A model generated the notes under the pieces. The model did no database searches and was not told where the DNA came from. It was given only the letters and a program-made list of their open reading frames with translations. Of a stretch of DNA of 51,676 bases, positions 6,811 through 7,788 are shown one piece after another; position 1 is the stretch's first letter, and each line of letters opens with the position of its first letter. A program made the translations under genes and the position numbers. The DNA comes from a phage: sequence record PZ534514.1; one strand, 5' to 3'.

Positions 6811-6840
6811 TAAAAATAAAGGGGCGCAAGCCCCTTTTTT
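6811..6840. terminator. Bidirectional terminator
   Basis: Hairpin ggggcgcaagcccc with flanking A-run and T6. Confidence 0.7.
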
Positions 6841-7481
6841 CATTGGTCGTAAATATCAGTCTTTATTGCAATTATTGAATTTCCGTTATTTGTTATAGAT
6901 CCTGTTCCTGGCGTTGTCCTTGCTGCACCTATCCTTGTGCTTGAACCATTATACCTGCATGATGTGTATATATCAGAAGCACCCATGCCTACAACCGCAC
7001 CAAGCCTTGAAGGGCAAACGGCATAAGAACCAGATAACGTTTGATCTATATTCGTTCCACCTGAAGAACCAGGAGTACCAATTGTAACAAGATCTGTTAG
7101 CACCCTGCTTTCATTAGTTAAAACCAACTTGCCGCTTGCATCCCATATAGCCATACCATATTTGGGTAGAGTTTGAGGGAATATGGCAAATATATAAACA
7201 GTCATTGTAAATGATTGCCCGTATGGATTGCCTCCGTTTACATAAATGTTGCCACCATTCCTGTAAGCTATTAATGCAGTTGGCTGCTGTGTGTTTGTTG
7301 TTTTTATAAATGCCATACATGGATAAGATTGATTCAATGGTATATTTGCGCTTGCGCTATGATAGGCAGAAGTGCCAGAAGATGAATAAGTGTACTTGCC
7401 ATATAAGCAAAATGGCGTTGATTTTGGTGTGATAAATGGATTCCCATTTGATAAAGATAACATTGCTCCATATTCAGCCAT
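6840..7481 (-). CDS. Tail-fibre-associated protein, MAEYG paralogue 2
   Basis: ATG at 7481 with RBS gagaggg one base after the upstream stop; Gly/Ser/Thr/Asn-rich. Confidence 0.6.
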   Translation of the reverse strand: MAEYGAMLSLSNGNPFITPKSTPFCLYGKYTYSSSGTSAYHSASANIPLNQSYPCMAFIKTTNTQQPTALIAYRNGGNIYVNGGNPYGQSFTMTVYIFAIFPQTLPKYGMAIWDASGKLVLTNESRVLTDLVTIGTPGSSGGTNIDQTLSGSYAVCPSRLGAVVGMGASDIYTSCRYNGSSTRIGAARTTPGTGSITNNGNSIIAIKTDIYDQ

Positions 7482-7482
7482 T

Positions 7483-7788
7483 TTAAGCCCTCTCAAGAAA
7501 AACAACTAACTCACACTTTGAAGAAGAATATCTATTTGCACCAACTGAAGATGTAGGACTGATTCTTATTGTGTTTCCAGATGCTACTATTTCCCTTCCA
7601 ACCCCTCTAGCACCCTCATCAAGCGAAACAACATACCCAACCTTAAAACCACTTGGAATGCTAAAGCTCCACGATCCGCTTGTCTGACCAGCCGCAAGGC
7701 TAATGACACCAACAACGGAAACTGGCTTGATTCCGTAGTTGTTATACTTCCCGTTAGCATCCCACGTTGAAACACCATATTCAGCCAT
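7483..7788 (-). CDS. Tail-fibre-associated protein, MAEYG paralogue 1
   Basis: ATG at 7788 after hairpin gcggggcaaatgccccgc and RBS ggagg; both paralogues begin MAEYG and share a WDA(N/S)GK motif. Confidence 0.6.
   Translation of the reverse strand: MAEYGVSTWDANGKYNNYGIKPVSVVGVISLAAGQTSGSWSFSIPSGFKVGYVVSLDEGARGVGREIVASGNTIRISPTSSVGANRYSSSKCELVVFLERA

Follow-up and report, generated by a model that had tools for sequence, protein, structure and literature searches.

Two neighbouring genes of a T1-like phage, A and B, lie directly behind a J-like tail-tip gene and encode proteins that begin with the same pentapeptide. The preliminary description of this DNA took the two proteins for paralogues, and their duplication for a trace of host-range diversification. 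The questions are whether A and B are copies of one gene or different parts of one device, and what they do. The window (the whole analysed stretch of record PZ534514.1; 51,676 nucleotides, 51.7 kb) is from a Hanrivervirus. The locus is 99% identical to that of vB_EcoD_Fulano1 and 93-96% identical to those of Henu8, JLBYU41 (95.4%), herni and others. On the minus strand the order is J-like gene, hairpin, GGAGG ribosome-binding site (RBS), A, B. The features are as follows.

7832..11410, minus strand: J-like central tail fibre or tail-tip protein, 1192 aa; open reading frame homologous to T1 gp33, named a tail protein in the records of Henu8 and T1.
7807..7824, minus strand: GC-rich hairpin between the stop codon of J and the RBS of A; 7 G-C pairs, -16.5 kcal/mol, z -3.0.
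7788..7483, minus strand: protein A, 101 aa, MAEYGVSTWDANGK...; open reading frame, T1 gp32 / N15 gp22 / phi80 gp22 family, phrog_557.
7481..6840, minus strand: protein B, 213 aa, MAEYGAMLSLSNGN...; open reading frame, T1 gp31 / N15 gp23 / phi80 gp23 family, phrog_425.
6818..6837, both strands: bidirectional intrinsic terminator common to the convergent genes B and cor; terminator-like on each strand, -15.4 and -13.9 kcal/mol, z about -4.
6582..6809, plus strand: Cor superinfection-exclusion lipoprotein, 75 aa, lipobox LTGC; NCBIfam lamb_exclu_cor, 70.5 bits (cutoff 31), E 9e-20; annotated as Cor in the Henu8 and T1 records.

The pair had been placed downstream of the J-like tip protein, and rightly: J ends at 7832, and the start of A, at 7788, comes directly after it. 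The RBS of A is GGAGG; that of B lies inside the 3' end of gene A. A and B are probably translationally coupled, since one base separates the TAA stop of A from the ATG of B. The hairpin at 7807-7824 was also picked up in a separate terminator scan and is followed by AUUUAU; a rho-independent terminator is annotated at the equivalent position in the T1 record. It may be a leaky terminator or attenuator, or a stabilising hairpin, and the expression of A and B is possibly reduced relative to that of J.

Both proteins do begin with MAEYG, and both contain WDA[NS]GK, as had been described, but the position of the second motif needs correction: WDANGK is residues 9-14 of A, whereas WDASGK is internal in B (residues 113-118, with KYGMAI just before). 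The motif is carried twice by B, as a degenerate N-terminal copy (MAEYGAMLSLSNGN) and a complete internal one (PKYGMAIWDASGK). When the 51.7-kb window is translated in all six frames, WDA[NS]GK occurs exactly twice, in A and B only (0.0009 occurrences expected from composition), and the chance that a given second protein has AEYG after Met is about 2e-6. The sharing of the motif by A and B exceeds chance. G5 is invariant in alignments of 25 diverse homologues of A and 25 of B. The consensus of the A family (25 homologues) is MAEYG.xTWDANG; that of the B family (25 homologues) is MAxYGAMI...NGNPF plus LPxWGMAIWDAxGxLVLTNESRVL. To judge from these alignments, the motif is a feature of the families, not a peculiarity of this genome. 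Selection acts on the peptide, since codons vary synonymously under the conserved peptide (8 phages).

Genes A and B are identical over their first 14 nt (ATGGCTGAATATGG; 7775-7788 and 7468-7481), and the codons differ in other phages. This identity looks like a coincidence on top of peptide conservation, not like gene conversion.

Each protein belongs to a family of its own. A matches phrog_557 over nearly its full length (E 3.8e-30; residues 3-99 on positions 2-99 of a 100-position profile), as does T1 gp32 (E 1.9e-31). B matches phrog_425 (E 4.8e-69; residues 1-212 on positions 1-224 of 224) and is 56% identical to T1 gp31. The T1 (gp32 and gp31), N15 and phi80 (gp22 and gp23) and HK022 homologues fall in the same two PHROG families; the T1 record itself remarks that its proteins resemble N15 gp22/gp23 and proteins of HK022. 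Cassettes of the T1 type have the same order: J, a protein of about 101 aa, a protein of about 213-229 aa, cor. Nothing of substance differs in the window; a loop of about 12 residues in T1 gp31 is absent from its 213-aa B. No Pfam or NCBIfam model matched A or B, and searches of PDB sequences with the two profiles gave matches at chance level only (E 0.25 and 0.36). The description of both proteins as rich in Gly, Ser, Thr and Asn is accurate (37.6% of A, 40.8% of B).

The two families travel together. Of 50,697 phage records searched by tblastn, 346 contain A and 352 contain B, and the distribution over organisms is the same for both; the pair is present in T1-like, Dhillonvirus-like, lambdoid (phi80), Erwinia, Pantoea and Klebsiella phages. 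Comparison of the region downstream of J in relatives, a check already proposed for this locus, places A directly after J in 8 other loci too. The order J, A, B is found in T1, phi80, Klebsiella Webervirus phages, an Erwinia phage, a Pantoea phage, an Enterobacter prophage and a metagenome phage. It is usually followed by cor, as in T1, phi80, Erwinia phage Midgardsormr38, the Enterobacter prophage and the metagenome phage; Klebsiella phage Alina and Pantoea phage AAS23 have J, A and B without cor.

The orientation of cor differs between these loci. The gene is convergent in the window, in T1 and in locus L006; it is co-directional with J, A and B in the Enterobacter prophage (L004, 7096-7329), in phi80 (L007, 5299-5532) and in the Erwinia phage (L009, 5081-5314). 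The differing orientation suggests more than one rearrangement of the cassette.

AlphaFold2 models A as a single beta-sandwich (mean pLDDT 83.6) and B as an all-beta protein with two beta-sandwich modules (mean pLDDT 88.5). The first 20 residues of A (conserved segment MAEYG..WDANGKYNNYGIKPVSV) and of B are among the best conserved, yet have the lowest pLDDT (49-62), a combination that fits segments folding on a partner. Neither protein has a signal peptide, a lipobox, or a transmembrane or hydrophobic segment (maximal 19-residue Kyte-Doolittle mean: A, 1.05; B, 0.93). By these models, A and B are soluble all-beta proteins, not membrane proteins. The database label "outer-membrane / membrane-associated" was rejected as unfounded: signal peptide and hydrophobic segment are lacking, and the models are small beta-sandwiches. 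A Foldseek search of BFVD with the model of A gave weak matches to small uncharacterised phage proteins only (best E 6e-4), among which no member of the B family was recognisable. The predicted model of B shares its fold with a solved receptor-binding protein (RBP) of the Oekolampad/Rtp44 family, PDB 9rpt_C, at an identity of only 14%.

The locus and its link to FhuA have already been published. In the BASEL paper (Maffei 2021; PMC8594841), "bona fide RBP loci" lie directly downstream of gpJ, and their alleles match the use of FhuA, BtuB, YncD or LptD. The locus of the window agrees with that definition in its position after a gpJ homologue and its neighbouring exclusion lipoprotein (Cor). The match between RBP locus and receptor was confirmed in a 2026 preprint based on 1,050 genetic screens, in which each locus has an RBP and one or two accessory proteins (10.64898/2026.04.02.716166). 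The close relative JLBYU41 is FhuA-dependent by experiment (PMC10373560); T1, N15, phi80 and HK022 all use FhuA (Wietzorrek 2006, as cited in PMC13164509). According to KlebPhaCol (PMC12629751), mutations in FhuA give protection from weberviruses. In the same study, a complex with FhuA was predicted for gp54 of Klebsiella phage Roth93 (ipTM 0.75) and not for gp53 (0.45), and both genes are missing from an FhuA-insensitive relative. By CDS count in the record, Roth93 gp53 is the homologue of A and gp54 that of B. A similar way of working is known from T5: the monomeric tail-tip RBP pb5 binds FhuA, and the adjacent lipoprotein Llp blocks FhuA from the periplasm (PMC9586334). No virion proteomics, binding assay or host-range mutants for the A and B families were found in the published literature, and papers on lambdoid mosaicism and on the mEp phages hold nothing on genes A and B. 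In the cryo-EM structure of T1, the distal 350 residues of J and anything attached to them are not resolved (PMC11945409).

The receptor-binding reading given earlier was right. By family, by synteny and by the resemblance of the fold of B to that of a solved RBP, A and B can with good confidence be read as the FhuA-type receptor-recognition cassette of a T1-like siphovirus: B, RBP; A, adaptor; Cor, exclusion. Most likely the two make up the extreme tip of the tail, with which FhuA is gripped, and B is very probably the protein that binds it. B is predicted to be an FhuA allele, since it is 56% identical to T1 gp31 and 20% identical to the corresponding protein of Bas06. A and B are transcribed after J and would both be part of the virion. 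B, located distally on the trimeric J fibre, would bind the extracellular face of the outer-membrane transporter FhuA, comparable to the binding of LptD by the Oekolampad RBP and of FhuA by T5 pb5; A would be the link between B and the conserved C-terminus at the tip of J. The N-terminal segment (M-A-x-aromatic-G ... D-x-x-G) would be a beta-hairpin connector that becomes ordered only on binding the element before it; it would link A to J, B to A and, within B, module 2 to module 1. Cor, the convergent neighbour, would block FhuA in infected cells. Such a cassette would decide which outer-membrane protein is used for irreversible adsorption in many T1-like, Dhillonvirus-like and lambdoid phages, and is relevant to predicting and re-engineering phage host range.

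The C-terminus of J bears on where the cassette would be attached. Over the last 60 residues or so of J (window positions about 7832-8014; ...ISVRDANGRLRVQIGRLTGTW), the window shares 65-85% identity with phi80, the Enterobacter prophage and the Erwinia phage, whereas over the first 800 aa it shares only 30-42%. The reverse is found with phage Rtp: its J is 64% identical to that of the window over the first 800 aa and only 40% over the last 60; its RBP, a single chain of the LptD type, is encoded on the strand opposite to J. By these comparisons, the last 60 aa of J follow the type of cassette rather than the phylogeny of the phage. They are probably the docking platform for the A-B cassette.

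The cassette exists in other receptor types. Phage Bas06 KarlJaspers, of the same genus as the window, uses BtuB (10.64898/2026.04.02.716166). Its locus (MZ501090, 5155-6315) has, as in the window, members of both families (phrog_557, E 5e-22; phrog_425, E 1.5e-44) and a Cor-like lipoprotein. The N-terminal hairpin motifs of its proteins (MAYG / MYG) are of the same type as those of the window, and its J has a C-terminus of the same kind; the proteins themselves are only about 20-24% identical to A and B. Unlike in the window, the three genes of Bas06 form one unit that is inverted and convergent to J. The two families are not specific to FhuA, since a phage that uses BtuB has both. Variation in host range comes from replacing one entire cassette allele by another, of which the BtuB allele of Bas06 is an example.

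The RBPs of phages that use other receptors may be related to the cassette as well. The family of the Oekolampad RBP and Rtp44 corresponds to Pfam DUF6453 (PF20051) and to phrog_1265. These RBPs are single chains of about 310 aa, and the Oekolampad/Rtp44 RBP binds LptDE; the cassette of the window has two chains and FhuA as its proposed receptor. The lengths agree: A and B make up 314 aa in two chains (101 + 213), and Rtp44 is one chain of 311 aa. Rtp44 likewise begins MAQGIYIDLNDGR, with similar G-x-G-I motifs near residues 113 and 207. The sequence links of B to this family are weak. B matches phrog_1265 at E 3.4e-5, as do 5 of its 25 homologues (best E 5.6e-7), and hhalign aligns the B family with the DUF6453 family over 75 columns (E 2e-3). 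The Pfam DUF6453 model itself matches neither A nor B (E up to 1) nor any of the 25 homologues of B (E up to 10). The other cross-family matches, individually weak (E 1e-2 to 4e-4 in small databases, with family sequences that are not independent), agree in position. In the cross-family HMM search, the core of A matches residues 57-120 or so of Rtp44 in 40 of 50 DUF6453 sequences. Conversely, the DUF6453 profile matches A at residues 30-86 or so in 44 hits, and its positions 114-229 match residues 12-127 of B. Concatenated A and B (8 phages) align with the DUF6453 family at the same coordinates (189-229 and 189-228).

These agreements are consistent with A and B being a two-chain version of the single-chain DUF6453 RBP, with A as the tail-proximal module 1 and B as modules 2 and 3; this is put forward tentatively, at somewhat less than even odds, and would imply that a gene was split or that two were fused. 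A recent preprint regards the RBPs of small siphoviruses of the FhuA, BtuB and LptD types as families with no relation to one another. If the proposal holds, they would form one superfamily of beta-sandwich modules of about 100 aa, and each module would open with an "aromatic-Gly ... D-x-x-G" hairpin plugging into the preceding element (the tip of J, A or B). The MAEYG coincidence would then be the trace of a general connector, which could serve for exchanging receptor modules among phages. The analysis suggests a single modular design behind the two-gene cassettes for FhuA and BtuB and the one-gene RBP for LptD.

The role of A is the part of the cassette with the strongest competitor. By its position, its weak profile matches and analogy, A is probably the tail-proximal adaptor of B. 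It could otherwise be an assembly chaperone that is absent from the virion and folds B or attaches it to J, as tail-fibre assembly proteins do, B being the RBP in either case. A small protein encoded always immediately upstream of B would suit that role, as would the lack of a confident FhuA complex in the prediction for the homologue of A (ipTM 0.45; PMC12629751); the presence of A in virions is itself deduced. The chaperone reading is nevertheless unlikely: the core of A has a consistent, if weak, match to module 1 of the DUF6453 RBP, a region that is part of the mature protein, and A has the same conserved N-terminal hairpin of low model confidence as B.

Less probable still is a role in exclusion, in which A and B would be membrane-associated accessories of the Cor system, located in the envelope of infected cells and not in the virion. 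It was guessed in the KanT1 paper (2026; PMC13164509) from adjacency to cor, no structural hits having been obtained there for the two proteins. Neither protein has a segment with which to enter or be anchored in a membrane (signal peptide, lipobox and hydrophobic stretch are lacking), both are modelled as soluble all-beta folds, and the fold of B matches that of a solved RBP. The arrangement of the genes also argues against it: the pair stays beside J in the cor-less phages Alina and AAS23, and in the window it is on the strand of J, close behind it, with cor on the opposite strand. The exclusion reading is thus very improbable, and the disagreement in recent literature between RBP and superinfection exclusion is settled here on structural grounds.

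The claim that A and B are paralogues has weak support: the shared motif and a weak similarity at the level of domains are in its favour, and paralogy would hold at most as the ancient duplication of a module. In pairwise alignment, which had been proposed as the check, BLASTP matches 14 residues only (A 1-14 with B 105-118, E 6e-4; A 1-14 with B 1-14, E 0.14). Profile-profile comparison of A and B gives 13-17 columns (E 4e-5 to 7e-5; 13-column hhalign, E 4e-5). A weak alignment of A with the N-terminal half of B covers 77 columns (E 1.3e-3, probability 18%), and one homologue of A, from Erwinia, matches the B profile at positions 104-209 (E 0.02). In the AlphaFold2 models, the strands of A (24-31, 38-41, 48-55, 65-70, 73-78, 92-100) resemble in order and spacing those of module 1 of B (25-33, 41-48, 55-62, 69-75, 78-85, 92-99).

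A search of 1.84 billion representative proteins with the A-family profile gave 77 hits, none of them a B-like or DUF6453-like protein. The hits that belong to the family are about 100 aa long or are shorter fragments, and one is a fusion to the C-terminus of J (139 aa). The remaining hits, large multi-repeat proteins, were rejected as compositional artefacts; the four with a Pfam match have FG-GAP or PKD repeats. The two halves of B show no detectable mutual similarity in profile comparison. When the modules (A, the two halves of B, three modules of Rtp44) were compared in all pairs, E was 0.004-0.36 except in two comparisons of A with B: the motif in the C-terminal half (E 4e-5) and the 77 columns in the N-terminal half (E 1.3e-3). 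These pairwise comparisons of modules do not demonstrate an internal repeat in B or in Rtp44. It is plausible that A and B share an ancient beta-sandwich module of about 100 aa, present once in A and twice in B. The pair is not a recent duplication; it is an old, conserved two-gene cassette.

A tandem duplication whose products diverged to widen or shift host range, for which the same first five residues and first 14 nt, the WDA[NS]GK of both proteins and their weak domain-level similarity might speak, can all but be dismissed: A and B differ two-fold in length and have no significant pairwise similarity beyond the motif, they belong to separate old families (searches with A never retrieve a member of the B family), the pair is a constant feature of about 350 phages from widely differing lineages, with one taxon breakdown, which fits two parts of a machine better than alternative binders, and receptor switching replaces both genes together, as in the BtuB allele of Bas06.

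Three minor observations are added. A third copy of the turn motif (ISVRDANGRLRV) is found in the C-terminus of J (window positions 7832-8014). Eighteen records of "Campylobacter phage" (MG065636-MG065687), with C. jejuni given as host, share 95-96.5% identity with this locus of an E. coli T1-like phage; their host seems to be misassigned, or they may stem from contaminating coliphages. Near the left end of the window, in the frames at 19-255 and those overlapping them, several candidate starts share the pentapeptides MPKIQ, MQPMK and MKARL, which suggests a short direct repeat in the DNA.
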